Below, in pieces: positions 11,775 to 61,785 of a DNA stretch of 64,000 nucleotides. The stretch comes from an uncultured Acidimicrobiaceae bacterium (lineage in GTDB: Bacteria > Actinomycetota > Acidimicrobiia > Acidimicrobiales > Palsa-688): assembly GCA_963823855.1 (NCBI GenBank), contig CAWGNA010000008.1, positions 466,444 to 530,443 of the forward strand. Direction: 5' to 3'. Each line of letters starts with the position of its first letter. The stretch's first letter is position 1. The translations under genes and the position numbers were made by a program. The notes under the pieces are model-generated. The model was not told where the DNA came from and made no database searches. It saw only the letters and a program-made list of their open reading frames with translations.

Positions 11775-12269
11775 GTGGCTCAGAAACTCACCGAACCCCT
11801 CAAGAGAAAGGAAGAGCGCGTGTGGAGAGACCTGGCTCGGTTCTTCGTCGTCGCGCCGCGTCTCCTCGACGAGGATCTCCAACGTGGCGCCAACATCTCC
11901 CTCAGTGACTACACCGTGCTCATGAACCTCTCGGAAGCTCCGACCGGCCGGCTTCGCCTCTCCGAACTGGCCGATCGCGCCTATCTCTCAGGAAGCCGGA
12001 TGACGCGGCTGGTCGAGCAACTGGCATCTGATCAGCTCGTCCTCAAGAGCCGAAGCGAGGACGACGGACGGGGCATTGATGTCAGCATCACCGACGCGGG
12101 CCTGTCACGCCTACGCGAGGCGTACCCCATCCACCTCTCGAGTGTTCGTAACCGAATCATGAACCATGTCGGTACACAGGTCTTGGGATGCCTCGGGACG
12201 GCAATGGCGTCGATAGTCGTAGGTCTTCAGCCCGATGAGCGTGACGTGGCCGGGAAAGGAGCGCGATGA
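11775..12269 (+). CDS. MarR family transcriptional regulator (GTG start proposed at 11775)
   Basis: Winged-helix core LSDYTVLMNLSEAPTGRLRLSELADRAYLSGSRMTRLVEQLASDQLVLKSRSEDDGRGIDVSITDAGL. The ORF track start (11628) overlaps the divergent MBL gene, so it was trimmed. Confidence 0.8.
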   Translation: MAQKLTEPLKRKEERVWRDLARFFVVAPRLLDEDLQRGANISLSDYTVLMNLSEAPTGRLRLSELADRAYLSGSRMTRLVEQLASDQLVLKSRSEDDGRGIDVSITDAGLSRLREAYPIHLSSVRNRIMNHVGTQVLGCLGTAMASIVVGLQPDERDVAGKGAR

Positions 12270-12367
12270 CGGATGCCTTTGTGCTCGGTGGGTACGCGCT
12301 CCGGCCCGCAAGTGCGGAGGGTCGCGTTGACCCGGTCCCCGCTACCGGACGCGCAAACGGTAAATGG

Positions 12368-13090
12368 TCATCGAAGGATAAGTCCGCCGTCCGCGCAGAG
12401 AATTTGCCCCGTCATCGCCGCCCCGCCGTCGGACGCTAGGTAGGCGACCGCTGACGCCGTGTCTTCGGGCGTAAGGCGACGCTTGAGCGCCTGATGTTCG
12501 ACCACGGCGTCGAAGTTGGAGCCCGAGTTCACGGTGCGCGAGGCGGGCGTGTCGGTGAGGCCCGGAGCTACTGCCGAGACCGCGATCCCGTCCCGCCCGA
12601 GCGCGACCGCGAGCGTGCGCATGACGCCGATGAGCGCTCCCTTGCTGGCCACGTACGGCAGCATCGCCGGGCCTGGCGGTGACCACACCGTGTCCGAGGT
12701 GACGAAGATGATCCGTCCGAAGCCCCGCTCTGCCATGCCGGGCACGAACGACTGGGCCAGCCAGAGCGCGGACTCGACGTTGACCGCGAGCACGTGCCGC
12801 CACGTCGCCGAATCAAGCTCGCCGAGCGACGCTTGGTCGAAGGCGGCCGCGGAATGGACGAACACGTCGCAGCGGCCGTACTGCTCCAGCACGGCCGCGG
12901 CCGCCTCCCGGGTGGACGACTCCGACCCGAGGTCGCACGCGATGGCCCCGGTCCGGTCGATCACTACGGCGCGATGTCCGGACTCTTCGAGCGACCGGCA
13001 AATCGCGGCGCCGATCGCCCCGGCTCCCCCGGTTACGACGGCGACGCGTCGGGGATATGGTGTGTCGTGCTCAGACAGCGGGCCCACCAC
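12368..13090 (-). CDS. Short-chain dehydrogenase/reductase (FabG-like)
   Basis: 240-aa ORF with TGGAGAIG cofactor motif, NVES, YVASKGAL catalytic motif and PGLTDTP. Confidence 0.9.
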   Translation of the reverse strand: MVGPLSEHDTPYPRRVAVVTGGAGAIGAAICRSLEESGHRAVVIDRTGAIACDLGSESSTREAAAAVLEQYGRCDVFVHSAAAFDQASLGELDSATWRHVLAVNVESALWLAQSFVPGMAERGFGRIIFVTSDTVWSPPGPAMLPYVASKGALIGVMRTLAVALGRDGIAVSAVAPGLTDTPASRTVNSGSNFDAVVEHQALKRRLTPEDTASAVAYLASDGGAAMTGQILCADGGLILR

Positions 13091-13138
13091 CCTGCAACAC
13101 CCCCTCCACTTCGAGGTTGAGGGTGTCGAATTATCTGT

Positions 13139-13912
13139 TCATCCTTTGATGGCACGACGGTCCTGCTTTCTGTGCACGTCGTCCGACCGTGCTTTTGTGC
13201 CGGCGGCGGGCGACGGCGGGCCGGGCGCTTCGTACGCCGTCGAGAACAGGTAGCTCGTGGCCACAGTGCGGTACGGCCGCCATTTCTCGGCGATGGCCAA
13301 CACCTCGGCCTGGCTGGGGAGGTGGTCTAGCTCGTAGGCACGCTGGACGGCCTTTCGCAATGCCAGGTCACCGGGGAGGACCACGTCTTCTCGTCCGAAC
13401 GCGAGGACCAGTGCACCTTGAGCGGTCCATGGGCCGATACCGGGGACGGTCGTCAATGCGGCGATGACCTCGTCGTCGGGCCGCTGGCTCAAGCTGTCGG
13501 GGTCCAACCGGCCGTCGGCAAGGCGCTCGGCCAGGTCGCGTAGGGTGGCAACTTTTCGCCACGACAGGCCAGCCTGGCGGAGGTTGTCTGGTGGCACCTC
13601 GAGCAGCTCGGCCGGCGACGGGAGGCGGCCACCGAACAGCACCTCGATGCGCCCCAGGGTGCGGCGGGTGGCGGCTACGGACAACTGTTGGCCCGCCACC
13701 TGGAACAGCAGGGCCCCGAACAGGTCCATGGCCGGGAGCTCGGCCACCCACCCTTGGGGGTCGAAGTCCGACTGGGCGTCAATGAGGCGCGCCAGCACCG
13801 GGTCGGCCTGGCGGAGCTGGGCGCGCACCCGGTCGAGCGGCGCCCCCCGCTCCGGCTCGGCCGAGCCCGGTGGCCGTCCGGCCGGTGGCGGGCCGGCTCG
13901 CTCAGGCGCCAT
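13139..13912 (-). CDS. HhH-GPD DNA glycosylase (3-methyladenine glycosylase II-like)
   Basis: 257-aa ORF with QQLSVAATRRTLGRI, LRQAGLSWRKVATLRDLA and LTTVPGIGPWTAQGALVLAFGREDVVLPGDLALRKA. Confidence 0.85.
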   Translation of the reverse strand: MAPERAGPPPAGRPPGSAEPERGAPLDRVRAQLRQADPVLARLIDAQSDFDPQGWVAELPAMDLFGALLFQVAGQQLSVAATRRTLGRIEVLFGGRLPSPAELLEVPPDNLRQAGLSWRKVATLRDLAERLADGRLDPDSLSQRPDDEVIAALTTVPGIGPWTAQGALVLAFGREDVVLPGDLALRKAVQRAYELDHLPSQAEVLAIAEKWRPYRTVATSYLFSTAYEAPGPPSPAAGTKARSDDVHRKQDRRAIKG

Positions 13913-14608
13913 ATGCGGGGATGACCGCTCCGCTAATGGGCGCGGCCGCCTCGCTTACCAAGAAGGCGACCACTTCGGCGATCGCCTCGGGGGCGACGGC
14001 GTGGGCCAGTACCTCTTTCGGCAATGAGGCCCGTGCCCAGGCGGTGTCGAGCAACTGGGGGGCGACGCTGTTGACCCGGATCCCGAGGGGCCGCAGCTCG
14101 AGGTCGAGGATGCGGGTCAAGTGGACGAGGGCGGCCTTGCTCACCGAGTACGCCGCCATGCCGGCCGAGGGCTCGATCCCGGGGCGGGCGGCGATGTGCA
14201 CGATGGCGCCTGAGCCGTTGCTCTGCATGTACGGCGCCACGGCCTGGCTAAGCCACAGGGCGGGGCCGAGGTTGACGTCGACCATCAGGTGCAACAGCTC
14301 CGGTGTGGTCGTCAACACGTCCCCGGTTTGGAACGCACCGATGGTGTTGACCAGGGCGTCGGGAGGGCCACGTCGCGGGCCACCCGTTCGACCATTGAAG
14401 CGGTAGCCTTCGGGTCGGTGGCATCGGCCAGTTGGCGGGCCATGCCGTCGGGGAGCTGTCCCAAGCCCGCCCCGTCCCGGTCGACCGCCACCACGGTGAA
14501 GCCGCGCTCGGCCAGCTTGACGGCCGTGGCCCGGCCGAGCTCGCCCGCGGCGCCGACCACGATCGCTACACGGCCCGGCGGGAGCCTGTCGTTGGTCATG
14601 CTGTGCAC
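13902..14608 (-). pseudogene. Short-chain dehydrogenase/reductase interrupted by one frameshift (~14358)
   Basis: N-terminal part in ORF 14312..14608 (VAIVVGAAGELGRATAVKLAERGFTVVAVDRD). C-terminal part in ORF 13902.. (DALVNTIGAF...YSVSKAALVHLTRILDLELRPLGIRVNSVAPQ). The join needs +1 nt in a GG/CC run. Confidence 0.75.
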
Positions 14609-14611
14609 CTT

Positions 14612-14701
14612 CCTTTCTCAGACCATTGGCCTTTCTCGGCCCATTGGCCCTTCTCAGTCCATTGGCCTTTCTCAGGCCATTGGCCTTTCTCAGCCCGCTG
14701 G
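14612..14701. repeat. 18-bp tandem repeat x5 in the divergent SDR/MarR intergenic region
   Basis: Units cctttctcag[a/g/t][c]ccattgg read head to tail. Each carries the dyad CCA-T-TGG, extended to GGCCA-T-TGGCC in unit 4. Confidence 0.9.
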
Positions 14702-14790
14702 GCCAGGTGCCCATCGAGACGGAGGGTGGTGGCGGTGGGCCGCGTCAACGGCCCAGGTATTGCTTGGTGAAGCAAGTTAGCCTAGCGGGC

Positions 14791-15273
14791 ATGGCCACCG
14801 GCACGCCGCTCTCCCCGGTCGAGGAAACGCTCTGGCGCGCAGTTATGCGAATCGTCAAAGTCATGCCCCGACATCTCGACAGCGACCTGACGAGAGGGGC
14901 TGGCCTGACGGCGAGCGAGTACACGACGATCATGGTCCTTTCTGAGGCCCCCAATCGCGAGTTGCGGATGGCGGACCTGGCCAACGCCACCGACTTGTCG
15001 GCGAGCCGGGTGACCCGCCTGGTGGACGACCTCCAGTCGCGTGGCCTCGTGACGAAGACGACCAGCTCGTCGGACGCACGGGGCAACGTTGCGAGGCTCA
15101 CTCCTCGGGGCATGGCCAAACTGAAGTCCGCATGGCCGGTCCACCTGGCCAGCGTCCGGCACCGCTTCCTCGACAGCATCGACCCAGGGGCCGTTGAGGG
15201 AGTGGCAAAAGCCTTGGCCGAGGTGGCCGTCCACCTCGACGACACGTCTGCCGAACCCCGAGGGCGGAGTTAG
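14791..15273 (+). CDS. MarR family transcriptional regulator (paralog of 11775..12269)
   Basis: ATG at 14791. Core sequence LTASEYTTIMVLSEAPNRELRMADLANATDLSASRVTRLVDDLQSRGLVTKTTSSSDARGNVARLTPRG. Confidence 0.85.
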   Translation: MATGTPLSPVEETLWRAVMRIVKVMPRHLDSDLTRGAGLTASEYTTIMVLSEAPNRELRMADLANATDLSASRVTRLVDDLQSRGLVTKTTSSSDARGNVARLTPRGMAKLKSAWPVHLASVRHRFLDSIDPGAVEGVAKALAEVAVHLDDTSAEPRGRS

Positions 15274-15372
15274 GGCCTCCAGTCCCATACAAACTCTACA
15301 TGTAATTGAATTTTTTTGGGGTCGAAACGCACGAGCTCGCCAGCCCGGTGCCCGATAGGTGAGGAGCACGTC

Positions 15373-15912
15373 ATGACATCACCCGCCGCCACCGCAGGTC
15401 CCGTTCTGTCCGACTACGTGCCCGTCCCTCCGTCGTCACTGGGCCCGCCCCTGAACGAGCAGGGTTACTACGTCGGGCGAGTTGAGCGGAACCTGTTCTG
15501 GGTCACCGACGGTACCTACCAGTCGGCGTTTTTGGCGACACGAGAAGGGATTGTGCTCTTCGACGCTCCGCCGACCATCGGCCACAATCTCCGCCGTGCG
15601 GTGGACGAAATCGCCGAGGCTGAAGGCGTCCGCAACACCGTCACGCATCTCGTTTACTCCCATCACCATGCCGATCACGCCGGTGCTGCCGACCTTTTCG
15701 GCAACGACCTCGTCCGGATTGGCCACGAGGACACACGACGCCTCCTCGAGCGCGACAACGATCCGACCAGGCCTGCCCCAGAGATAACTTCCGGGACACC
15801 TACACCCTGAGGGTCGGCGGCGAACGTGTGGAGTTGGCCTTTCACGGTCCCAACCACACCCCAGACAACATCTTCATCCACTTTCCGGACCACGACGTGC
15901 TGATGCTGATCC
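15373..15912 (+). pseudogene. MBL-fold metallo-hydrolase paralog, frameshifted (~15790) and 3'-truncated (~15912)
   Basis: Aligns by eye to 10540..11667 (WVTDGTYQ.., YSHHHADHAG, ERDNDPTRPAPEI). It continues in another frame (TFRDTYTLRVGGERVELAFHGPNHTPDNIFIHFPDHDVLMLI), then homology stops. It has no signal peptide. GAGGAG RBS before the ATG at 15373. Confidence 0.75.
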
Positions 15913-16342
15913 GCACGCACCCCTACCCACCGGCCACCTGCGCCAGGCCTTCGTGTCGCGGTCGAGCCCGTAGGCTGAGACGGCCCTTACGATCTCGCGC
16001 CAAGTAAACCCCTTACAAACTTCGGGGGCGCACGAAGGCTTACTCAGCAGTGTCTTCCCGGGAATGAGCACGCGAAAGAGGGTTCTCCTTAGTACGGTTT
16101 TCAACGGGCTGAGCCTCCCGACTCAGGTCAGCGTTTGGCCCACCCTGCCGGCGGCGTAACCTCACCCAACGACCACTTCAGGGCCGAACTTCTTTTCTCG
16201 ACCGTTGCCTGCGGCTCGGCCCTCACGCTTGCTGCGAAGCCTGCAACTCCTGAGTGTCAACTCCTGGGCGCTTCGCGGACGAATCGCGCACGCCCGCTAA
16301 GCAATCCTAATCCCCGCCATGCAGTTATTGCCACCTGAACTG

Positions 16343-16389
16343 CGTTTATTAACGGTGGAGGTGATGGGACTTGTACCCACGACTTCTAC
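16343..16389 (-). repeat. Partial copy of the tRNA-Ala 3' half (att-like direct repeat)
   Basis: 46 of 47 nt are identical to 24419..24465 in the same orientation. The single mismatch falls in the T-loop (TTC to TAC). Confidence 0.9.
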
Positions 16390-16920
16390 GATGCGAACGT
16401 GCGTAGCCGCCTAACGATGAAGAGCGCAGATGCTTATTTCGGCACGTCAGCTTGCGTTTTTGATTGACCGCTTATGACAGGCCGAGACCGTAAATGCACT
16501 CCGTTGTGGTGCAGGTGTGGTAGAGGCTCGGGTTGGGCCAACGTCGCCGTGCGGCGGGCGCGCAGTGATGGGGGTTGCGTTGTGGAGGCGACAAGCTCCT
16601 TGGCGGTCGCTTTGGTGCTCGGGTTGCCAATCTCGCCGTTGCAGCGAGCAACCGCTTCGCTAGCGGGCCGGACCGACAAGGCTGGTCTACCAAGGCCTCT
16701 CCCTGGACGGCGCCCCCAGCTGCCGGTATGCTACGGGTGGCGCGTTACGCCTGGTGTTACAAGCGATATTAGCGAGGACCGACCGTCCGATAACTGTCGA
16801 TCGGGGTGCGGCGCGAACTTGCAGTTGTGGGTTCTGCGTAGCAGTTCTGGGCGTTCCCGAACGATCAGGCTCTTATCCCAGACCAGAGTGGGGATGCCAG
16901 CGAGCATCGGGTCTGGCGGA

Positions 16921-17882
16921 TCATCTAGCGGAGGCGGGCGCTGAGCTGAACGCGCCGAGCGCCTCGACGATCGAGCTGGGCGAGCAGTCTTTCACCTTCA
17001 CCGACGCGTTGAGCCTCCCGTGCGGGAGTTGCGTGACTGCGGCGACAGCTGTTGCAGACAGTGTTCCGTCCGGTCCAGCGTTGCCGACGGCGAAGATTGG
17101 GCTGCCGGCCTGGAGCTGGCCCGGGTTGGCGTCGGGAACTATGACGAGGGTGGCGGGTGAGGTGGTTACCGGAACCCGGGCTCCGCTGGACGTCACGAGG
17201 CTGAAGCCGGCGGTGCTCACGTCCGACACGGTTCCCTGGACGGGGACGAAGCCGCTTGGGTTTACTGCGCTGAACGGCTGTCCGACGGTGACGATGGCCG
17301 CGTCGATCGTTCCGTTGGAGCTGTAGCCCCGGACCATGACTGACGCCCCGTCGGTGATGTAGCCCAGCAGGGCCCGGACGCGCTCACGAAGGTCGATGCC
17401 GTCGTGGTCACGGTCACCATTTGGCCGCTGGCGGTCTGGATGACCAGACTGCTGCCGTCCACCTGCTTGAGGGTCCCATCGGCCTGTTCGAGCTGGCTGC
17501 ACCCGCCGACTGAGGTGAGGACCATCCCGCCGTGGCGGCCGGACAGCTGCACGTGCACGGTCCCGGTCAAAATGCCTCCCCCGACGAGCAGGACGAGCGC
17601 TGCTGCCGCGCTGGCGACCACCCAGATGGCACGTTTCCACGGGCGCCCGACGTGCTGAGGGGTGCGCTGCGACCAGAGGGGCTGGGGCGCCTCCGAAGCG
17701 CCGGCTGCCAGACCTCGGACCCCGTCGGCAACAAGGTTCCACCGGCTCGCCTCGCGTTGGCAGTGTTCACAGTTGGCCAGGTGCTCCCTGGCCCGGTCGC
17801 GTACTGGCTGGCCGGCGGCGCCGGCGATCAGGTCGTCGAGGTCCAGGTGCGGGTTGTGAGTGTCGGCAGAGTCCGCGTTCAT
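16921..17882 (-). pseudogene. Anti-sigma factor (zf-HC2 type, one TM helix, extracytoplasmic domain), one frameshift at ~17372
   Basis: N-terminus has the HLANCEHCQREASRW zinc-finger motif and a TM helix (AIWVVASAAAALVLLVGGGIL). The C-terminal half continues in ORF 16921..17742 after a CCC run. ATGA overlap with the upstream sigma factor gene. Confidence 0.7.
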
Positions 17883-18481
17883 AGGTTCTGGTCCTTCTCG
17901 TGAAGTATCTGGTTCAAGGCGGTGCGCGCTGCGGCCAGGCGGCTCTTTACCGTCCCGAGCGGGACGTCCAGCACGTGGGCGACTTCGGGCAGGCTGAGCC
18001 CGGAGCCGAAGGCAAGGCCCAAGACTTCCCGGTGGGCTGGAGCGAGCTCCCGGATCGCACCCCGCACCTCAGCCAGCTCAGCCCGGTCCAGGGCCATGAC
18101 GTCCGGTCCAGGACCTGAGCCCGGCTGTTCAGCCAGCAAAGTGTCATCCACGAGCCGTAGCCGGCGGGCCCGCAGCCGGTCCCGGGTCCTCCGGCGCGCC
18201 ACGGCGATGACCCAGGAACGCACCGACGAGTCGCCACGAAAGGAGCCCGCCCCGCGCCAGACAGCGAGCATCGTGTCCTGCAGGATCTCCTCAGCTATCA
18301 CCCGGTCACCGACCACCAGCAGGACCTGCGCCAAAACAATCCGGCCGTGCTCGCGGTAAAAGCAGGCCATCGCGTCCGCATCGCCTTGCCCGATCCTGCG
18401 CAGCAGCTCAGTATCGTCACAGGCAGGATCGCGGCTGGGGACGGAGGCGGCGGTACCGAGGTCCCGTTCCAGCTCGTTCAC
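17879..18481 (-). CDS. ECF (group 4) sigma-70 family RNA polymerase sigma factor
   Basis: 200-aa ORF with region 2 (EEILQDTMLAVWRGAGSFRGDSSVRSWVIAVARRRTRD) and region 4 HTH (REVLGLAFGSGLSLPEVAHVLDVPLGTVKSRL). Confidence 0.9.
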   Translation of the reverse strand: MNELERDLGTAASVPSRDPACDDTELLRRIGQGDADAMACFYREHGRIVLAQVLLVVGDRVIAEEILQDTMLAVWRGAGSFRGDSSVRSWVIAVARRRTRDRLRARRLRLVDDTLLAEQPGSGPGPDVMALDRAELAEVRGAIRELAPAHREVLGLAFGSGLSLPEVAHVLDVPLGTVKSRLAAARTALNQILHEKDQNL

Positions 18482-18875
18482 CTACGACTCCCCAGATCCA
18501 TTCGCACATCAAGTAAGTAGCAACAAGACGCGGCGCGGATCGTTTCGCTAGCGAAATTTCTCACGAGCCGAGCGCGCCATATTAAGCAGCAATACGTTGC
18601 GGACCTGCCTTCGACTTCGGTTATAGAGCGGACGGCGAGGAGTAAGGCGAGCGCGGTCCCAAGTGCGATGAGCCTTCCGCCTGTGGAGAGCGGAGAGTAA
18701 AGCCACACCGCGGAGAGGGAGAGCGGGTTCACTTGGCACAACAACGCCGTGCCGCTCTCATATGAGTGCAACTACGTGGACTTCGCCGGGGCGTGCCGGT
18801 GCCGCCGGTTCATACCCATCTCACCCGAGGCCCCAGTTGAAACCCCGGTGGTAGAGGGGGCATCATTGGAGGCAG

Positions 18876-19208
18876 ATGGAGCCTCGCTACCACCACACCT
18901 GGAGGGCTCACAAGCCCGTCAACGCCAGCCCCGAGCAGAAGGACCTGGGCTGGAAGGTGGTCAACGCCGCCTCGGTGGCCGTGGCCGCCATCGTGACCCA
19001 GCGCCTGCTCACCATGGCCTGGCGCCTGGTGCGCCACCAGCCCCCTCCGAGCGGACCGGCGGACCGCAAAGCTACCTGGGGCGCCGCCCTCACCTGGGCC
19101 ACCTCCATGGCCGTGGGCATCGCCGTGTCCCGAGTGGTGGCCGTGCGCCTGTCCGGCAAGGTCTGGGAGGCCGCCGTGCACGAGCCGCCCCCAGAAGCGC
19201 CCTCCTAG
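18876..19208 (+). CDS. DUF4235-like small membrane protein
   Basis: 110-aa ORF (LGWKVVNAASVAVAAIVTQRLLTMAWRLV...WGAALTWATSMAVGIAVSRVVAVRLSGKVWE), matching the DUF4235 pattern as I recall it. Start uncertain. Confidence 0.6.
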   Translation: MEPRYHHTWRAHKPVNASPEQKDLGWKVVNAASVAVAAIVTQRLLTMAWRLVRHQPPPSGPADRKATWGAALTWATSMAVGIAVSRVVAVRLSGKVWEAAVHEPPPEAPS

Positions 19209-19519
19209 GCCCGAGGGCCTCTGTGTGCCCCGCAAGGGCTCCTTCCCTAGCATTGCGCAGTGAACACTCCGCTCCCGCCGATAGGAGCCATGTCGGGCCC
19301 GAGGCTGCAGCCGCCGCTGTCATCGGGAGATTCAACGGCAAGACGCGCCGACTTTCAAACCCCCGAGGCATTAACTTCGGCACTTATCTGGCGCCCCAAT
19401 AAAGTTGATCACGTCCTTCGTGATCCAGGCTCAGGCCCCACCGCCTCAAGGCACACAGAACAACGGTCACCGGTGGCTACAGCACCGCGCCAGATTCGGC
19501 TAGGAGTATAAGCACTACC

Positions 19520-20199
19520 TACATAAATAGGGGTCCACCACTGCCGAAATCGAGCCTGGTACGTCAGTCTCACCGGGTCCCGGCCTGGCTCGAGAATCGG
19601 CTGACGGTCAGCCTGTCTTGGGATTCGATCTGTCGACCGGGGCCAGGTGTTCAGTGGCACGAACTCGCTCCCACGCCTCCCACAGGACGTCGCTCCTGTG
19701 GGCACGGTCGTACAGGGCGTGGAAACGCCTACCCTTTGACTGCTTGGCCGCAGCCCATAGCCGGTTCTAGAGTTGTCGCAGTTTGGCGGCGGGCATATGC
19801 CCGCCGGGGTAATTGGGCTGGGCGGCCCCAGCCATGCCCTCGCGCTTACCTCTGCTCCCGGCGTGACCGGAAGTCGGGGCCTTTCCCTGGTCGGCGGGCC
19901 TGTGCAGCCCTCCCAGGTACTATGGCCCCGTCGGACTCCCGCTCCACTCCGTCGGACTTCACCACTGGCTTATACCGACGGTCTTTGCTGACAAGGCTGT
20001 GGAGACGGGTCTCTCCAGTCCCGAGCCCAACCCTTGCGTACGTGCCGCCCCCCGTACCCCGGAGGGGACCTGGCCAAGGGCATGTCCGGACGCCATTTAG
20101 GCCAGGTGCTGCCTTCGCCGTGACATGAGCGGCTCGGCTCCCCCGTTGTGGATTTGACGAGGCTGCAGGGCTCACGCCTGGTGGCGCTATGGCCCGCAC
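19520..20199 (-). mobile_element. Group II intron, 5' fragment (domains I-III plus the first ~40-70 codons of the RT ORF), truncated
   Basis: The minus strand starts GTGCGGGCC at 20199. A long ORF-free GC-rich structured stretch follows (..GGTATAAGCCAGTGGTGAAGTCCGACGG..). Then comes the RT N-terminal signature KGRRFHALYDRAHRSDVLWEAWERVRA, which degenerates by frameshifts. No domain V/VI follows. Confidence 0.7.
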
Positions 20200-20353
20200 G
20201 CTTGCTCCCTCCAAAGAGGCTCTTGACGCCCCGCTTAGCACGCCGCCTCTCGATGACGGGCCGGGGCCTGCTACCGGGCTCTCCGGCGTTTACCCGGACG
20301 GGACTCTCACCCGCTGGGCTGGTCCAGTCTTCAGGACGCAACATGGCCTGACC

Positions 20354-22051
20354 TTAGGCACCTCCCCAGACGTTTAGGGTGATGTTTGACAAAGTTTCGC
20401 CGTTGTCGCCCGAACAGGTGAGGCTGACGGTACTGCCGGCCGGCAACGAAGTCCAATAGCCGGTGACCGCCAGCGAGGCGATGAGAATGTTGCTGCCCAC
20501 CTGGCCCTCGCCAATGAAGTGGTTCGGGAGAACTATGGGGTTCAGCTCACACCTGATAGTCCCTTGCGGGGCGCGGCCGTCGACGACGTTATTAGCGGTC
20601 ACCACGCCGGTGGCAGTAGCCATCAGCTTCGAGGTGGCATTCGGGATGGTCACGCTCACAACGGTCACTGCGGTGGTGGGGGGCACCCGTCCGGCGCTGT
20701 AGTTGCTTTCCATATCCGTTGCACCCGACCCCGCCGGCCCCTGCGGCCCTTGTACCCCTTGTACCCCCGGGTCCCCTTGGGGGCCTTTTTCCCCTGGCGT
20801 CCCGGGAGGGCCAGCAGGTCCGGCAGGTCCTTGCGGCCCAACAGACCCCGCAGGTCCGGCAGGTCCTTCCGGCCCAACAGACCCCGCAGGTCCGGCAGGT
20901 CCGGCACCGCCCGTATCGCCCTTATCGCCCGCAGGTCCTTGCGGCCCAACAGACCCCGCAGGTCCGGCAGGCCCGGTAACGCCGTCAGCACCAGCAATCC
21001 CGGTTGCCCCCGCAGGTCCAGCCGGCCCAATAGCTCCGGTCGGCCCGGTAGGACCAGTCGACCCGATCGCACCCGTAGCCCCAGTAGTTCCAGCTCCGGT
21101 AGGGCCAGGAACTCCGGTTGCTCCAGTCGGCCCGGTCGGCCCAGTAACCCCGGTAGCCCCGGTAGCCCCAGTTCCAGCCGGCCCCGTAAGGCCCATCGGC
21201 CCCGTCGGCCCAGTGGCGCCAATCGTTCCGGCGGCACCCATGGGGCCGTCGTTACCGGTGGCGCCAGTAACCCCCGTGGCCCCTGCCGGGCCCATCTCGC
21301 CAGTGGCTCCAGTTGGGCCGATGGCTCCAGTGCCGCCCGTGGCGCCAGTTGGGCCGGTGCCGCCCGTTGCTCCGGGCAGCCCATCCTTGCCAATTGGGCC
21401 CGTTGCGCCGATTGCGCCTGCCGAGCCAGTGGCCCCAGGCCTGCCATCCGAGCCCGTCGGCCCTGCAGGCCCTGTGGCGCCCGTCGGACCGCTGGCGCCC
21501 GTAGCGCCGGTAGGACCGGGCGCCCCCGTTGGCCCTGTAGCCCCGACAGACCCACTCCCGCTCCCACTTCCGGTGGGCCCGGTCCGGCCCGTTGGCCCGG
21601 GAGGACCAGCCGGGCCAATTGGCCCTCCCACACCGAGGCCCGCGGGCGTGGCGACGCCGACGACGTTGTCTTCATGGATATTCAAGGCGGGCAGGGAGCC
21701 GTAGAACTGGGCGGAACCAAAGGGGAACACGCCACCGTCCCTGGCGACCAACCAGTACCCCTTCCCGTCCGGTGCAGAGGCGATCCCGACAATCGGGGAG
21801 TTGAGGTGCATATTCGTCAGGCTCCCGTAGTAGGAAACGCCCCCAAAGGCGTACACCTCGCCATCGGAATCGGTAAGCCAGTACCCACTACCAACGGGGT
21901 CGGCGGCCTTGGCGACGGCCAGGTCCGGCAGGGGCACCGCCACCGTCGGGGTACTGCCCGAGAGGAGCAACACGCCGGCGGCGGCCGTCCCGAGCATGGT
22001 CCCCCTGGCCGCCCGCTTCCAGCCTTTACGGGGCATTGCATCGTTACTCAT
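20354..22051 (-). CDS. Secreted collagen-like protein: signal peptide, GYW-type repeat N-domain, ~300-aa Gly-X-Y tract, globular C-terminal domain
   Basis: 565-aa ORF. Signal-like N-terminus ([16 protein letters not shown]). Repeats [22 protein letters not shown] and [22 protein letters not shown]. An almost uninterrupted GXY tract ([13 protein letters not shown]...). A ~130-aa C-terminal non-repeat domain. Confidence 0.85.
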
Positions 22052-22269
22052 CGCAATTTCCTCCTAACTGCTAGTGCCATGGCATTGAAACTTAGTTCCG
22101 GCGCAGCGCCGACTGTGCCACGCCGCTAACCCAACGCCTCGCTCGCCGTGTCGGGTATGCGCTGGTCACAATCGGTGATCTTGCGCCGGGCGCTTTCCTG
22201 CCCCAGCTTCCCGAACCAACCCATGGCGGCCGGCGGGAGCGGCGCTCAACTGGGAACCAGGAAAGGCCG

Positions 22270-22720
22270 CATGTGACCGCCGGTGAGGCACTTCGGGGCC
22301 TGGTCACCTCACCAAAACCAGAGGAAGTGCTCCACGGTACCTGGTGCCACCTATTGGCCGGCATCCCGCCAGGTGACAATTACCTCTGCTACACCGCTGA
22401 GAGAGGGCATCCAGACCCTGTCTTCAAGTGGCGGAGCCGCTGCTTACCCGGCGCACCGAAGCGCCCTTACCGATGTGGCCAAGCTCCGATCATCCGGCTT
22501 TCGTTGCCACTTGGGCATCCTCATTTATGGTGTCGGGTTGCGCATCAACGAAGGAGTACTTGCACAGTTGTGTGAGGTTCGGCCGGCATCGCCAATGGGT
22601 GGGCGGATTGAAGCGCCTCTGCTCATGATTTGGCCTTGGAACCAATTGGTCGATCACCGTCGGGTGGGGTTCACCCCAGTAAATCAGCGCTCTGGTCCAG
22701 CGGATCCGGTGTGCCATGCC
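22270..22720 (+). pseudogene. Possible heavily decayed DNA (cytosine-5) methyltransferase remnant
   Basis: Scattered frame-hopping matches: IPPGDNYLCYTAERGHPDPVFKWRSR, RINEGVLAQL (cf. RxTxRExAxLQ) and HRQWVGG (cf. YRQIGNAV). No intact ORF. Confidence 0.3.
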
Positions 22721-23503
22721 TCCTGCATTTTCCGGGCCGGCAACTTCTGTTGTGATGAAGGTTTACCCACCAGCGCATGACTAGCTCAGTAATAGAACGG
22801 CTTTTGATCCCTGGGGGTAGACCGGGCTTCACCACAAGCCTCTAGAAAGCCCCCAGGAGCGGCGATAGCCTCGGGCGGCCCTTCCCCTACAGGGGTCTCT
22901 CAGAGGACACCCGCTGAAAACCCCAGTGGAACAAGGGCTCTTGAGCGGCCTTGGACAAAAGAGGAGCAAGAAGGTGCTCAGGTACTGGAGTTGAAGGACG
23001 TTCATGGCCAAAGTACGCATATATATGGGGAGCCGAAGATCGCCCGGCAGTGCTTTAGCTTCCCTTGGCCGGCTCCTTCATGGCCCGGTCGTAACCCTCG
23101 ACATACCCCCCGTCCAGGCGTAGGTAGGCAGGTGGAGAAGAGCGCCTTCGAGGTCGGCGCCGGCATCATCGGACCCTCAGGAGCGCATTTCGTTGACAGG
23201 CACCGATTCGAGTACGAGGACGCGGCAATCAAACCGAAATCAGCAGCCGGTATGTCCGTGCTAGGCGGCCAAACGAGATCGTCGTTCATGTCCAGCGGCC
23301 AGCATTTCGTAAGGCGAACATCGGGGATCGGAAACGCTACCTCAATAGGGTATGGCTCTGCCCACGCACCCATGAGAACCTGAACGAGGAGCTGCCCGAA
23401 GGCGAAGGTTACCATGACGATGTTCATTTCGGGCTTCTCTGGGGTAGCTCGGTCTCCCGTGAGGAAACGGCCTCACGGGAGCAATGTTCCTTGCCTTAGC
23501 GAC

Positions 23504-23983
23504 CTATAGTGCCCGAGGGCGGCAAGGGAATTCCTTAGTGGTTGATGGCTGGAGTAAAACTCGTGCGAGAGATATTTTGGGCAGGTGTTGTACTTCATCG
23601 GGGACGTCACGGTAGTAGGCATCGAGAGTCAGACATTTCAGCTGGCCCCACGCAGCGATTTGTCGTCGATCTCCTGATGTCAGAGTCACGGGAACACCGC
23701 GGATCAGGGGCTCCAGGATCGGTCTGGTCGAGTCCTCCAACCGTGACATCCAGGCGCCGTTGCAGTCGACACAAGTCCGTGGGAGCTTGAGGGTCGCCAA
23801 ATTCCCGAACTGCTTGGTGTGCCGGACTATTGGCTGACCGGGTACCTCCGTGAGAAAATCGGTGCTGATGGAACCCACTGGCTCCAGTTCTTTGGACACC
23901 CAGCGGCTGATGATGTCCTCCTCAGCCCGGGGGCCGGCCTGATCACAGAACATGCAGCGGACCCTTTTACGACTTGTACTCAC
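23504..23983 (-). CDS. Hypothetical Cys-rich protein (CxxC...CxxC, HNH_5-like layout)
   Basis: 159-aa ORF with CMFCDQAGPRAEEDIISRWV...CVDCNGAWMSRLE. It resembles the small HNH/zinc-ribbon family, but the expected His is Asp. Confidence 0.45.
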   Translation of the reverse strand: MSTSRKRVRCMFCDQAGPRAEEDIISRWVSKELEPVGSISTDFLTEVPGQPIVRHTKQFGNLATLKLPRTCVDCNGAWMSRLEDSTRPILEPLIRGVPVTLTSGDRRQIAAWGQLKCLTLDAYYRDVPDEVQHLPKISLARVLLQPSTTKEFPCRPRAL

Positions 23984-23987
23984 CTCA

Positions 23988-24326
23988 TCAGCGCTTCTGT
24001 TTGTTGCCCGGTGAAACCCTCCGTGAATGGGAGTCGATGAGGGTCAGCCGGCCCCAGAGTTTTGCCTGCCCGGGCTCGGGCACGAGACGCAAAGCCTCGT
24101 CGATCCGGGTGCGCCGATCGGCTCGATCCGGGCTAGTTGCCATCAAGTTGTACTCGGGTCGGTCAGTCGCCAACCTCGGCCCGTAGCGCCGGGTCAAATC
24201 CCTGGAAAGCTCATCGTCGAACACCAGGTCGATCTTGCCAGCTCCTTCGGAGCGTGAGGCAGGTTTTACCGACCTGGTCCTCCAGGAGCCTCGGCGTGCC
24301 ATCGTCGTGCCATCTTGAGCGGGCAC
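23988..24326 (-). CDS. Hypothetical protein
   Basis: 112-aa ORF immediately upstream of 23504..23983 on the same strand (4-nt gap). No recognisable motifs. Confidence 0.35.
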   Translation of the reverse strand: MPAQDGTTMARRGSWRTRSVKPASRSEGAGKIDLVFDDELSRDLTRRYGPRLATDRPEYNLMATSPDRADRRTRIDEALRLVPEPGQAKLWGRLTLIDSHSRRVSPGNKQKR

Positions 24327-24406
24327 GAGGGGTCACTAGGTCGTGAATGAGGCTTCCCAAGTCCGGGCAACAGCGCCCTTGAGCTGCTCTAATGGTGTCC
24401 AGGCTG

Positions 24407-24430
24407 GTGGAGGTGATGGTGGAGGTGATG
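24407..24430. repeat. 12-bp tandem duplication (ggtggaggtgat x2) at the tRNA-Ala 3' end
   Basis: Read directly. The second copy is the tRNA acceptor/T-stem 3' strand. The first copy lies just outside the gene. Confidence 0.85.
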
Positions 24431-24493
24431 GGACTTGAACCCACGACTTCTACGATGCGAACGTAGCGCTCTTCCGGGCTGAGCTACACCCCC
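24417..24493 (-). tRNA. tRNA-Ala(CGC): tRNA-Ala (anticodon CGC), CCA encoded
   Basis: 77-nt cloverleaf folded by hand: acceptor GGGGGTG/CACCTCC with the G3:U70 Ala identity pair, D stem GCTC/GAGC, anticodon stem CTACG/CGTAG, loop TTCGCAT, T arm GTGGG-TTCAAGT-CCCAT, ACCA end. Confidence 0.95.
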
Positions 24494-24956
24494 GACGGTG
24501 ACCAAGCCTAGCGTCTGGGCCGACGCGTGGATTGGGGCTAGCCGGGACCTGGTCGCCGGAGCCGAGCCAGCGTGGGAACCGACGGGAGCTAGTCGCCCCG
24601 AGCCAGTGGGCCGTACAGGACTGCCGTCGGGCGGCCGACTGGGAGGGCTTCGTCAGTGCCCAGGGCTTTTTCGGGTGCCTCTAGGGGTAGCTGGTGCACG
24701 GGGCGACAAAGATAGCGCGCCACCGCACCGGGAAAGCCTCATGGCACCGAGAAGCTCGGACCAGTGCGCACGACCCCGCCGGTCGACAGGCATAGACAGA
24801 GACCGGCAGAGCAGAGACCGGCAGAACAGCGGCAGAGACCAGCTCGGAGAGACGGCGGGAAAGCGACCGGCGGGAAAGCGACCGGCGGCATGGACCTGCC
24901 TGCCGCGTGCAAACCTGCGAACAGGCCGAAACGCGCAATACCGTCCGGTGCCCGGT

Positions 24957-42539: not shown

Positions 42540-42760
42540 CGGCGTCGATATTCAAAGCCATCGAGCCTGGGCCCGAGCCTGTTGGGGCGGGGGAACTGCG
42601 AGCGGCTGATCTCGGGGTCGGGACGAGGGCCCGGACCGGGACCGGGACCGGGTTCGGGACCGCTTCGGCCGTCGAAGCTGGAATCGGCACCGCTGAGGTG
42701 CCGGGGGCGACGGTTGCGGGGCGGGAGATGCCAGCTATCGACGTGGCCGTTGCCGAGATA

Positions 42761-42949
42761 GAGATGGCCGGCGCCGAGATGGCCGGCGCCGAGAGGCGAG
42801 AAGAGATGGCCGAGATAGAGATGGCCGAGATAGAGATGGCCGAGATAGAGATGGCCGAGATAGAGATGGCTGGGGTTGAAATGACAGGCGCCGAGAACGG
42901 CAACGGCGGCGCCGAGAACGGCAACGGCGGCGCCGAGAACGGCAACGGC
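42761..42949 (+). repeat. Three adjacent tandem-repeat families (15 bp x2, 15 bp x4, 21 bp x3) downstream of dxs
   Basis: gagatggccggcgcc x2 (42761-42790). gagatagagatggcc x4 (42812-42870). ggcgccgagaacggcaacggc x3 (42887-42949). Confidence 0.9.
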
Positions 42950-43354
42950 GGCGCAGGCTCGGACGAGCACCTGACTGTCGAAGTCGACACGGCCCGACTC
43001 GGCTAGGGGCGGCGGCTCGAGCCGCCGTCGTCCCGTTTTTGTCGCCTGCGATTGCAGGGTAATTGGCTTTCTTGGCGCAAAACGGTGAATTGGGTTGCTT
43101 TTCGCGCCCCTTTTGACCCGCCACTACAACGAGTTACGGCGGGCGCACCGAGAAGGCGCTGTGGACGTCGCCGGCCGGGCGGGGACCGACGCGTTTACAC
43201 CGCCGCCAGGGCCGCTCGCTTCGCGCTCCCCCACGGTGCAACCCCTGTCGCTCGCGCCGGCACAGGCGCCCAGCCACTGGAAGCCTCTGGAAGCCGCTGG
43301 CCGCTATCGTGCCACCGGCTTGAGCATGCACGGCGAGATCACCTCTTGTGCTAT

Positions 43355-48200: not shown

Positions 48201-48277
48201 AGCGGGGTGGAGCAGTCAGGTAGCTCGTTGGGCTCATAACCCAGAGGTCGCTGGTTCAAATCCAGCCCCCGCCACCA
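48201..48277 (+). tRNA. tRNA-fMet(CAT): Initiator-type tRNA-Met (anticodon CAT), CCA encoded
   Basis: 77 nt: AGCGGGG TG GAGC..GCTC, anticodon arm TTGGG-CTCATAA-CCCAG with three consecutive G:C pairs next to the loop, an unpaired 1:72 position (A/C), T arm GCTGG-TTCAAAT-CCAGC. Closely resembles the E. coli tRNA-fMet layout. Confidence 0.9.
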
Positions 48278-48380: not shown

Positions 48381-49565
48381 GTGAGCCGTGCGGGGACCAA
48401 GCGCAAACGTCGGGAGGGAGTCTGGGAGGTCCGCGTGTACCTGGGTCCGTGACCCGGTCACGGGCAAGGAAAAGCAGCTCTCGAAGACCGTTTACGGCGG
48501 CGCCAAGGCGGCCGACGAGGTACTGCGGGACCTGATCGGGAACCGGGCGCCCCGTACGGACGGAATGGGGGTGTCGTTTGGGCAGCTCCTCGATCAGTGA
48601 CTGGAAGAGTGCGAGCGGCTCGACCTGTCCCCGACAACACTCCGGGCGTACCGGTCCGAGATCGAGCAGAACATCCGCCCCGCCCTGGGCAAGATACCGC
48701 TGACCCGGCTAAGCGCCAAGCACATCGACGACCTTTACGGGGCGATGAAGGACGCCGGCAAGAGTCCTAAGACCATCCGTAACCACCACGCCATCATCTC
48801 GTCGGCGTTACACCAGGCGGCCCGGTGGGGGTGGGTGCGTACCAACGTCGCCGAGCTGGCCAAGCCGCCCCGCATCGCACAGCGCCGGGTCAAAGCTCCA
48901 TCTGTGGATGCGGTCCGCGTCTGTCATACAGGCGCTGCGGAACGCGACCCGCGCCTTGCCGCCCTGTTTATGCTCGGCGCCGCTGACCGGCATGAGGCGT
49001 GGAGAGCTCTGCGCACTCAAGTGGTCCGACGTGGACTTCGAACACGCCGAGCTTGAGGTCTCCCGAGCGCTAATCCTCGTCCCCGGTGGGCTGGCCGAAA
49101 AGAGCACCAGACCGGCCGGGTGCGGCCAGTGGCCCTAGACGACGTGGGCATTGCCCTGCTCGTCGAGTACCGGGCCACGGGTCGACGAGTGGGCAGGACA
49201 GGCGGACGCAGTAATGGGCAGCGACAGCATACGTCTTTTCGCCCTACGTTGACGGATCAAAGCCCTTCCGACCAGACAACGTGACCGGCTTTTTTGTGCG
49301 GGTCCGCGACAGCCTCGGTCTACATGGCGTCCGTCTGCATGACCTTCGCCACTTCACCGCTACTCAATTGATTGGCGCAGGCGTCGACGTACGCACAGTC
49401 GCCGAACGGCTTGGGCACTCGGACGCTTCGCTGACACTGCGCGTGTACTCCCACGCCATACGGGACCGTGACCGCGCTGCAGCAGAGGTCATTGGGCGCG
49501 TCCTCAGCCCGGTTCGACGGCCATTGGTCAGTCTTGAGACCAGCCAGGTCGCGCCCTCCGTGTGA
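48381..49565 (+). pseudogene. Tyrosine (phage-type) integrase, at least 4 frameshifts
   Basis: Fragments in three frames: VSRAGTKRKRREGVWEVRVYLG / RDPVTGKEKQLSKTVYGG.. / LSPTTLRAYRSEIEQNIRPALGKIPLTRL..KTIRNHHAIISSAL / LTGMRRGELCALKWSDVDF / LHDLRHFTATQLIGAGVDVRTVAERLGHSDASLTLRVYSH. Confidence 0.8.
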
Positions 49566-53452: not shown

Positions 53453-53528
53453 ACCGCAAAGGACCGCCTTGAGCAGCGAGAACGCGCCACACCGCAAAGG
53501 ACCGCCTTGAGCAGCGAGAACACGCCAC
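53453..53528 (+). repeat. 38-bp tandem duplication (1 mismatch)
   Basis: accgcaaaggaccgccttgagcagcgagaac[g/a]cgccac occurs twice, head to tail. Confidence 0.9.
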
Positions 53529-60777: not shown

Positions 60778-61785
60778 TCAGCCGAGCAGGCCGGCGTCAT
60801 CGAGGGCGGTGATGAGCTGCGTGGACGCGACGGTCGTGTAGATCGACGTGGTCCGGGGATCGGCGTGGCCCATCAGCTGGGAGATGACGCTGCCGGGGAC
60901 GCCTCGCAGCGCCAAGGTGACGCCGTAGTGGTGGCGGAAGGCATGGGCCGCCGCACCGGCAGGAAGGACGACCCCGGCCCGTCCCGCCAGGCCGCGCACC
61001 AACCGGTCGAGGGCCTGGGGGGACAAGGCGCTGCCGCCAGGCCGCACGAACAGTGGATCGGTCGGCCGGGCCGGGAGAGCGCTACGGCCCTTTGCGGGCT
61101 GGGCCCGCTCTGCGAGCCACTCGTCGATGGCCTCGACGGTGCTGCGAGGCAGGGGGACGTCACGGGTCTTGTCGCCCTTCGAACGCCCGACCCTCCAGAT
61201 GGGCCGCTCGGCGCGCCGGTCGAGCTCGCCGATGGTCGCCCCGCAGACCTCCTCGGCCCGGGCGCCGGTGCTGGCCAGGAACCGCACCAGCGCCGCGTCC
61301 CGGGCAGGCCAGAACATCCGCTGGCGGCCACGGGGCTCCTCGCTGGCTGCCGCCCGGATCCTCTCGACGTCGTCGTCCTCAGGGGCTCTCGGGCGGCGCT
61401 GCGGCCGTGGCGGCGCCTGGAACAGGTCGGCGTCGAGGGGGTCCGCCGCCAGGTGGCCACGGCGGTGGGCCCAGCGGGTGAACCCCCGGAGCGTCGACAG
61501 CATGCGGGCCACGGTCGCGTCCGACCAGCGGCTCTTGGCCACCGCCATCGCTTGGACGAGTACCTCTTCTGAGAGGTCGCTCAGAGCAAGCGCCGAGACG
61601 AGGGGCTCGTCGCCCGACGGTGCAAGGCCTTGGGCCTCGCCGATCGCAATGGCCCAGCGCTCCAGGTCCGAGCGTCGGGCCCGGTCCGAGTTGCCCTTCG
61701 CAGCCTGGGCGGCCGACCCCAGCGCACGCTTGGCCGTGAGCCAGTCCTCGACCAGCTCGACGACCGGGACCGGTGTAAGTGCCAC
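60778..61785 (-). CDS. Tyrosine recombinase / phage-type integrase (intact)
   Basis: 335-aa ORF with ARDAALVRFLASTGARAEEV (box I Arg) and HAFRHHYGVTLALRGVPGSVISQLMGHADPRTTSIYT (HxxR..H..Y). Confidence 0.85.
   Translation of the reverse strand: MALTPVPVVELVEDWLTAKRALGSAAQAAKGNSDRARRSDLERWAIAIGEAQGLAPSGDEPLVSALALSDLSEEVLVQAMAVAKSRWSDATVARMLSTLRGFTRWAHRRGHLAADPLDADLFQAPPRPQRRPRAPEDDDVERIRAAASEEPRGRQRMFWPARDAALVRFLASTGARAEEVCGATIGELDRRAERPIWRVGRSKGDKTRDVPLPRSTVEAIDEWLAERAQPAKGRSALPARPTDPLFVRPGGSALSPQALDRLVRGLAGRAGVVLPAGAAAHAFRHHYGVTLALRGVPGSVISQLMGHADPRTTSIYTTVASTQLITALDDAGLLG

Follow-up and report, generated by a model that had tools for sequence, protein, structure and literature searches.

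Islands integrated in tRNA genes (tDNAs) end in an intact tDNA on one side and in a displaced 3' fragment of it on the other, and at hot spots they form tandem arrays (PMC4383910). Cis-mobilizable elements (CIMEs) are defined as elements that keep their attachment (att) sites and have lost the genes for integration and transfer, and they have a place in the accretion model (PMC5704250). Here we studied a 64,000-nucleotide stretch of DNA, hereafter the window, from an uncultured Acidimicrobiaceae bacterium (contig CAWGNA010000008.1), in which the 3' end of a tRNA-Ala(CGC) gene very probably harbours a composite integrative island in a state of decay (positions 16401-24417). Loci fetched for comparison are cited by number with the prefix L, and positions without such a number refer to the window.

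In its end marks and their direct orientation, the island resembles the tDNA islands of Islander (Hudson, Lau & Williams 2015, PMC4383910; Williams 2002, PMC100330). The likeness extends to a block of identity running from the anticodon stem-loop to the 3' end of the tRNA, to tyrosine integrases, here found in relatives, and to tandem arrays at the same tDNA. However, the window island is without an integrase, and the Islander filter would therefore reject it. Furthermore, its tRNA-proximal and distal parts come from different module families.

Like the CIMEs and the ICESt1-ICESt3 elements of Streptococcus thermophilus (Pavlovic 2004; Bellanger 2011; PMC5704250), the island lies at a site of tandem accretion, where relatives carry integrase-less modules between att copies beside intact elements (L082/L083 and L089-L092). 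In the window both attL and attR are kept and both the integration and the transfer genes are lost, and the island appears to fit the published definition of a CIME (PMC5704250). It differs from the S. thermophilus case in the host (Acidimicrobiia), in the target (tRNA-Ala instead of fda), in being known from sequence alone, and in being a hybrid of the ends of two families. A third comparison concerns integrative and mobilizable elements (IMEs) with a tyrosine integrase and a TrwC relaxase (PMC5704250). The elements in L088 and L089-L093 have the integrase, an HTH_17 excisionase, TrwC and an AAA_30 helicase; the stretches covered contain no genes for a conjugation pore, and their cargo includes sigma factors. 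In these loci the IME hallmarks (an integrase of its own plus a relaxase or oriT) are present, whereas the window island keeps none of the core genes and is a derivative of such elements, not a member of the class.

Our literature search did not bring up any tRNA-Ala element described from Acidimicrobiia. The element family and the att site are new, but the kind of object is a textbook one and involves no new mechanism. The locus documents a tRNA-Ala(CGC) hot spot in the poorly studied uncultured soil Acidimicrobiaceae, a site used both by small integrase/relaxase elements and by integrase-less modules. The genomes together provide a natural series of an empty site, an intact element, an element with a dead integrase and an integrase-less mosaic, which is of use in annotating such metagenome-assembled genomes (MAGs) and in working out the att site of the integrase family. 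The cargo (an extracytoplasmic function (ECF) sigma/anti-sigma pair, DUF4235 and a collagen-like protein without a close relative) may be of biological relevance to the strain.

The tRNA-Ala(CGC) gene and the ends of the island

A scan of species-representative genomes with the ABC permease encoded next to the island placed the window among uncultured Acidimicrobiaceae MAGs from Microflora Danica soil. The congeneric MAG L003, with a permease of 90% amino acid identity and DNA about 82-87% identical to the window, has the unoccupied site that a tDNA island leads one to look for. The homolog of window 16124-16353 directly abuts the 3' end of an intact tRNA-Ala(CGC) gene, and the alignment with the window contained no partial tRNA copy. 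In blastn, the reverse complement of L003 (792-1022 and 9362-9642) matched 15911-16141 and 16124-16400 at 87%. Since the native flank adjoins the tRNA directly in L003, window 16354-16400 represents the former 3' part of the tRNA gene, still on its native flank, and window 16401-24417 is therefore inserted DNA.

A repeat finder located the 47-nt direct repeat of 16354-16400 and 24418-24464, in the same orientation and with one mismatch (T for A at 16374). The 30-nt core of the repeat occurs in exactly two places in the 64-kb window, against 0 expected from 100 shuffles. Thus, the window has an intact tRNA gene and, downstream in the same orientation, a 3' fragment of it. An earlier note, made from the window sequence alone, had described such a 47-bp repeat from the 3' half of tRNA-Ala-CGC and had read its copies as attL and attR. 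The repeat finder, ARAGORN and Rfam agree with that description, except that the right copy was placed 1 nt and the left copy 11 nt away from the positions given here. The att reading is borne out by the integrases at the same tRNA in relatives and by the empty site in L003, a comparison that the note itself had proposed.

In the tRNA sense the block reads ACG-UUCGCAU-CGUAG...CCACC, where the first three bases are the last three of the 5' strand of the anticodon stem; by inspection, it spans from the anticodon loop UUCGCAU through to the CC of CCA. By this position the block would be a classical anticodon-centred tDNA site, in the canonical sublocation. The crossover position, the specificity of the integrase and excision are deduced only from the nucleotide sequence. 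Both att cores in the window are intact, with the sole mismatch in the T-loop, outside the anticodon stem-loop. In the case of the sister strains L001 and L087, the distal att copy is short of 7 nt (ACGTTCG), among them half of the anticodon loop, and their islands are for this reason probably dead even in trans.

The 12-mer GGTGGAGGTGAT (ATCACCTCCACC in the tRNA sense) is present three times in the window, starting at 16354, 24406 and 24418. The tandem duplication of the tRNA terminus reported earlier is thus real, and its position is now 24406-24429. The duplicate is absent from the empty site of L003 and from L088. In the window, L001 and L087 the two copies directly adjoin, with the 'AGC' after the duplicate common to both variants; in the B-type modules (see below) of L082, L083 and L086 a spacer of 7 nt separates them. 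L094 (JGI contig Ga0136633_1118731) has three tandem copies of ATCACCTCCACC at 87-134 of the contig. We regard the duplicate as an island-side repeat of the acceptor/CCA end that varies in copy number. Slippage is the simplest cause of the duplicate, because the unit itself consists of two imperfect hexamers; the 12-mer may also be a recombinase-binding repeat, or the scar of an earlier recombination between 12-mers of tandem att copies. We considered whether the tandem 12-mer of L001/L087 is a scar of the deletion of a B-type module; this is weakened by the three copies in L094, and slippage is equally likely. In L094, the triple repeat comes after a tRNA-like T-arm/acceptor fragment with a different T-stem and is adjoined by an open reading frame (ORF) resembling an excisionase with a helix-turn-helix (HTH), and ARAGORN found no tRNA on this contig.

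Integrases in relatives and the three parts of the island

Neither Pfam on the ORFs nor tblastn with integrases of the family (16354-24464) revealed a remnant of an integrase, excisionase, relaxase or helicase between the att copies, in agreement with the earlier statement that integrase and excisionase are missing. An integrase inside the island was seen in relatives only, as a pseudogene in L001 and L087 and as an intact gene in L088 and L089.

The sister strains were found by exact-protein look-up of the permease (L001) and by look-up of integrase homologs (L087). Their backbone is 99.8-100% identical to the window. They have window 11898-18591 and window 24403 onward in common with it, and the DNA in between measures 1457 bp, compared with 5811 bp in the window. 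This 1457-bp stretch encodes a tyrosine recombinase that reads toward the tRNA. The gene is broken by at least three frameshifts in L001, and in L087 only a 190-aa fragment was called; the frameshift-joined L001 sequence matches PF00589 with 58.7 bits as well as Phage_int_M and SAM_3. Metagenomes commonly contain intact homologs of 376-385 aa (81-85% identity).

At this tRNA-Ala gene, L088 carries an intact element, which we call A-type. The stop codon of its integrase lies 15 bp from the tRNA, and the integrase is followed by an HTH_17 excisionase-type gene, a TrwC relaxase, an AAA_30/PIF1-like helicase and cargo, up to a distal att copy (46/47 nt) at a distance of 9.0 kb. Over the roughly 120 bp inside this distal copy, L088 and window 16401-16521 agree at about 76%; with the 47-nt att copy included, window 16355-16521 has an identity of 76% with both L088 2032-2199 and L086 8561-8729. 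As the distal end of L088 is conserved to this degree, the first segment of the window island (S1, Table 1) terminates in a genuine element end, which is probably an attP arm.

In L089-L092 the order is the tRNA-Ala gene, a 6.9-kb integrase-less island of defence type, a partial att copy and an intact A-type element with Fic, integrase, excisionase, TrwC, helicase and sigma/YCII cargo. The integrase is near the internal partial att copy, not beside the tRNA. L093 has the same element and island, with no tRNA gene and no second att copy within the stretch covered. The defence-type island (L089-L092 12651-19558) encodes GAP1-N1, two DO-GTPase proteins and a metallophosphatase (Metallophos), and its tRNA-side end repeats about 25 nt of the end of the neighbouring element. 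The integrase P0013, which led to this island, is on at least 24 contigs.

The segment next to the tRNA (S3) belongs to another family of modules without an integrase, the B-type. Its GC content is 59%, compared with 65% for the window. In L082 and L083 the B-type module is 7.1 kb long with partial tRNA-Ala 3' halves on both sides, the second of which is followed by the homolog of the native flank of the window; no tRNA was found within 8.6 kb upstream and no integrase in the 20-kb loci. With partial halves on both sides and no tRNA nearby, this module lies in the interior of a tandem array. In L086 the B-type module comes after an A-type right end and an att copy. In L002 unrelated DNA follows the tRNA-Ala gene. 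The tRNA-Ala(CGC) locus is an integration hot spot.

Between S1 and S3 lies the segment S2, for which no counterpart was found in any fetched locus (tblastx against 96 loci gave noise only). The S2/S3 junction is at 22445. The independent short-read contig L095 matches 22097-24303 at 99.8%, and thus this junction, the deletion at 24042 and the broken 272-aa gene (Table 1) are real and not assembly artefacts. Of the two junctions, only that of S2/S3 is covered by an independent contig; the S1/S2 junction (18591/18592) rests on the assembly of the window.

History of the island and alternative explanations

These comparisons show a site-specific insertion at the predicted anticodon-centred tRNA-Ala site, attributable to an element family with a tyrosine integrase. 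All mobility genes have been lost in the window, and the island is a three-part mosaic. It is made of the remains of at least two element families and a unique middle segment, and is not one island minus its integrase.

We propose the following origin. IMEs of about 9 kb with a tyrosine integrase, an HTH_17 excisionase, a TrwC relaxase and a helicase would recombine in the anticodon-loop region of the tRNA gene. The incoming element would bring its own tRNA positions 29-75, so that the tRNA would be regenerated and the original 3' part would be moved to the far end of the element. In the present state both att copies are kept; S1 is the right end of one element and S3 the left end of the second family, which is integrase-less and uses the same att site as the A-type elements. 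The most likely history is accretion followed by deletion: a tandem in the order tRNA - B - att - A - att would have formed, and internal deletions would then have removed the middle att copy and the A integrase in the lineage of the window, and B in the lineage of L001/L087. Such a tandem ancestor is plausible because of the architecture of L089-L092 and L086. The resulting island is immobile by itself, and could at most be excised in trans, like a CIME.

Several points weigh against this history. The postulated tandem ancestor, with B and A in this species, was not found in any genome examined, nor was the source of S2 found among the fetched loci. The backbone of the window differs from that of L001 by 0-0.2% (17 kb), but the difference rises to 0.7-5.5% in 15911-18591 and is 0.9% in 24403-24956. 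With such a local peak, either the island alleles predate the backbone or homologous recombination through the flanks has exchanged them, and the peak fits an exchange of alleles at least as well as two recent deletions from a single ancestor. In addition, the frameshifts in the L001/L087 integrases and that in the window anti-sigma gene (in a C homopolymer) could partly be errors of long-read assembly.

The explanation that survives best beside accretion and deletion takes up this peak. Alleles of a hypervariable locus would have been swapped by homologous recombination via the conserved flanks and the att copies with a more divergent donor, the mosaic having been built elsewhere. We consider this possible, with a chance appreciably short of even. 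The sharp rise of divergence around the island speaks for it, as do the 12-mer duplicate and following 'AGC' that both variants share. However, no donor was found, and relaxed constraint on a decaying island could account for part of the excess divergence; indels are also enriched. Moreover, a swap would alter only the route by which the strain obtained the island, not the nature of the island.

It is also conceivable, though doubtful, that the integrase-less B-type modules (S3 of the window, L082/L083/L086 and, by analogy, the defence-type island of L089-L092) are hitch-hikers and not debris. Modules with nothing but att-proximal sites and cargo would then spread at tRNA-Ala(CGC) in Acidimicrobiaceae by accretion beside IMEs of the L088 type and borrow their integrase. 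The hybrid in the window, which joins a B left end to an A right end and has two intact att cores, could then still be excised in trans, and the variable 12-mer repeat beside the core, in one to three copies, would be part of the recognition site.

The model implicit in the earlier note, a single island of about 8 kb that integrated once and later lost its integrase, with all genes as the cargo of one element, is in our view unlikely. One att pair does bound the whole stretch, with no internal att copy or 12-mer between its two copies, and both the island and the loss of the integrase stand. A single origin does not, as the S3 family in L082/L083/L086 is set off from other elements by att copies of its own and S1 belongs to an element of the L088 type. 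Furthermore, the sister strains hold the integrase exactly where the window holds S2 and S3, and hence the change was a replacement and not a simple deletion.

A prophage remnant would agree with the tyrosine integrase in relatives and with one match to a PHROG of unassigned function, but is highly improbable: the island has no phage structural, packaging or replication genes, the intact relatives carry TrwC and a helicase, and a collection of 50,697 phage genomes yielded no match and IMG/VR none to the att site. That the 47-nt copy is merely a tRNA pseudogene or local duplication in ordinary chromosomal DNA, perhaps of a scattered family such as the earlier note had envisaged, has next to no probability, because the partial tRNA-Ala copies that do recur in related genomes are all at tandem-island junctions in the correct orientation, only two copies exist in the window, integrases stand beside the tRNA in L001, L087 and L088 and near the internal partial copy in L089-L092, and the window copy is colinear with the native flank that abuts the tRNA in L003, an empty site that effectively refutes this explanation.

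Gene content and surroundings of the island

The features of the island and its flanks are collected in Table 1. Its only clearly intact genes are those for the ECF sigma factor, DUF4235 and the collagen-like protein.

Table 1. Positions of the island, its segments and genes, and the adjoining features in the window
Feature	Position	Strand	Remarks
MBL-fold hydrolase pseudogene	15316-15912	+	Outside the island; Pfam Lactamase_B
Native chromosomal flank downstream of tRNA-Ala	15911-16353		blastn, alignment with L003
Displaced tRNA-Ala 3' fragment, attR side	16354-16400	-	47 nt, one mismatch in T-loop
S1, right part of A-type element	16401-18591		blastn; common to sister strains L001/L087
Conserved element end, putative attP arm	16401-16521		Inside S1
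Anti-sigma factor gene	16924-17882	-	Weak zf-HC2 match; 320 aa, intact in L001/L087
ECF-type sigma factor gene, intact	17879-18481	-	Pfam Sigma70_r2, r4, r4_2, ECF
S2	18592-22444		Window only; in place of the integrase-bearing 1.46 kb of L001/L087
DUF4235 gene	18876-19208	+	Pfam PF14019, 51 bits; third-position GC (GC3) 0.92
Group II intron 5' fragment	19658-20346	-	About 690 nt; D1-D4 RNA and about 45 codons of reverse transcriptase (RT)/maturase
Collagen-like protein gene	20354-22051	-	565 aa; Pfam Collagen, 125 bits
S3, left end of integrase-less B-type module family	22445-24405		blastn to L082/L083/L086, 76-94%
Pseudogene of about 272 aa	23181-23983	-	Two frameshifts; phrog_38451-like, conserved CxxC motifs
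Remnant of 374-aa gene	23983-24326	-	795-bp internal deletion at 24042; gene follows att copy in B-type modules
Extra tandem tRNA-terminal 12-mer	24406-24417		GGTGGAGGTGAT (ATCACCTCCACC in tRNA sense); island side of junction
tRNA-Ala(CGC), intact	24417-24493	-	ARAGORN; Rfam RF00005, 63.8 bits
att identity block, predicted to be element-supplied, attL side	24418-24464	-	tRNA positions 29-75, inside the intact tRNA-Ala

The sigma factor and anti-sigma factor of S1, a pair already recognised in the earlier note, are both present, although the anti-sigma gene is frameshifted in comparison with the sister strains. It is split by a 1-nt deletion, with one C missing in a C run at about 17373. The sigma factor is 96% identical to its L001 counterpart, and the region upstream of its gene changes at a distance of 110 bp from the ORF. 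Unrelated islands at the tRNA-Ala locus repeatedly carry sigma-factor modules as cargo: ECF sigma and anti-sigma at window 17262-18481, sigma with DUF6596 and YCII at L089 3900-5174, and ECF sigma with zf-HC2 anti-sigma, SCO1 and NicO at L083 2687-3265 and 6380-6856.

For the other island genes the first annotation fared unevenly. Pfam confirmed DUF4235 and the collagen-like protein, which has a signal-like segment in accordance with the proposed secretion, and the group II intron is truncated as claimed. In contrast, the decayed methyltransferase-like stretch gave no Pfam match at E<=1, and the two small ORFs called orphans are not orphans. Three small ORFs near the tRNA (23988-24326, 23504-23983 and 23002-23427) are fragments of two genes, of 374 aa and about 272 aa, that are intact in other genomes.

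The intron RNA was detected with Rfam RF02003 (D1-D4-4, 88 bits) at 20182-20316. Of the intron-encoded protein, an RT, the first 45 codons or so are left, and a 52-aa fragment matches ltrA with 55-70% identity. Over 690 nt, an Embleya replicon shares 73% identity with the intron fragment and continues with a 526-aa ORF. Rfam gave no match to D5/D6 anywhere in the window; the intron is therefore not complete (D1-D6 with an intact RT/maturase ORF), being truncated at its 3' side with D1-D4 and the N-terminal part of the encoded protein only. The presence of a truncated intron indicates that S2 itself has been rearranged. The intron fragment starts about 8 nt past the stop codon of the collagen-like gene (20346-20356), which indicates that the intron was inserted immediately downstream of this gene before it was truncated.

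The collagen-like protein consists of an N-terminal hydrophobic signal-like segment, two GYW repeats, about 310 aa of Gly-X-Y and a C-terminal globular domain. No close relative was found among 5.8 billion proteins, in a full-length search that was swamped by Gly-X-Y matches. Exact-protein look-ups of the window sigma factor (two starts), the collagen-like protein, DUF4235 and a 159-aa ORF gave no match in a collection in which the contig of the window is not indexed.

In the case of S3, searches of Pfam, NCBIfam, PHROGs and PADLOC with the small ORFs and the 374-aa and 272-aa proteins were blank save for the one PHROG. A PDB sequence search with the 374-aa protein was also blank. For P0002, a homolog of the 272-aa protein, the AlphaFold model was poor (pLDDT 64), and Foldseek against PDB gave nothing below E 0.07. 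We considered the 374-aa gene, which lies beside att, as a new recombinase, and found no recombinase motif or match in its support. By eye, the 374-aa protein resembles a PD-(D/E)xK nuclease, which we note as a candidate likeness.

On the outer side, the island is preceded by genes for an HhH-GPD glycosylase, a short-chain dehydrogenase (SDR), a MarR regulator and a metallo-beta-lactamase-fold (MBL) hydrolase. The last gene is truncated near 15912, as reported before, and also has a frameshift near 15790; homology with L003 begins at 15911. Its ORF covers positions 7-63 of the Lactamase_B profile, and the frameshift-joined sequence covers 43-146 of 196.

L003 has an insertion of its own, of 8.3 kb (L003 11963-20301), located 230 bp downstream of the tRNA-Ala gene. 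Six or seven genes or gene fragments for tyrosine recombinases follow one another there, which resembles recombinase-in-trio elements, and IS3-type HTH fragments are present as well. About 18 bp equivalent to window 16124-16141 occur on both sides of the insertion.

Elsewhere in the window, two places weakly match the C-terminal catalytic region of tyrosine integrases in tblastn (31-35% identity), namely 49272-49493 (+) and 60829-61164 (-). The former lies about 1 kb downstream of a tRNA-Met gene (48201-48277) and in no ORF of at least 100 aa; it may belong to another decayed island. No tRNA-Met fragment of at least 25 nt was seen in 40-64 kb.

In L001, a stretch of 1303 bp (L001 11357-12659), situated between the permease stop codon and the tRNA-Ala region, contains 654 A, 405 C, 240 T and only 4 G on the plus strand. 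This stretch is absent from the window and L087 and is apparently an artefact of the assembly or the reads; a search for neighbouring sequence of which it could be a C-to-T converted version gave no convincing match. Short-period tandem repeats, unrelated to the island, are present in the window at 42716-42954 (15- and 21-nt units) and at 53453-53528 (two copies of a 38-nt unit).

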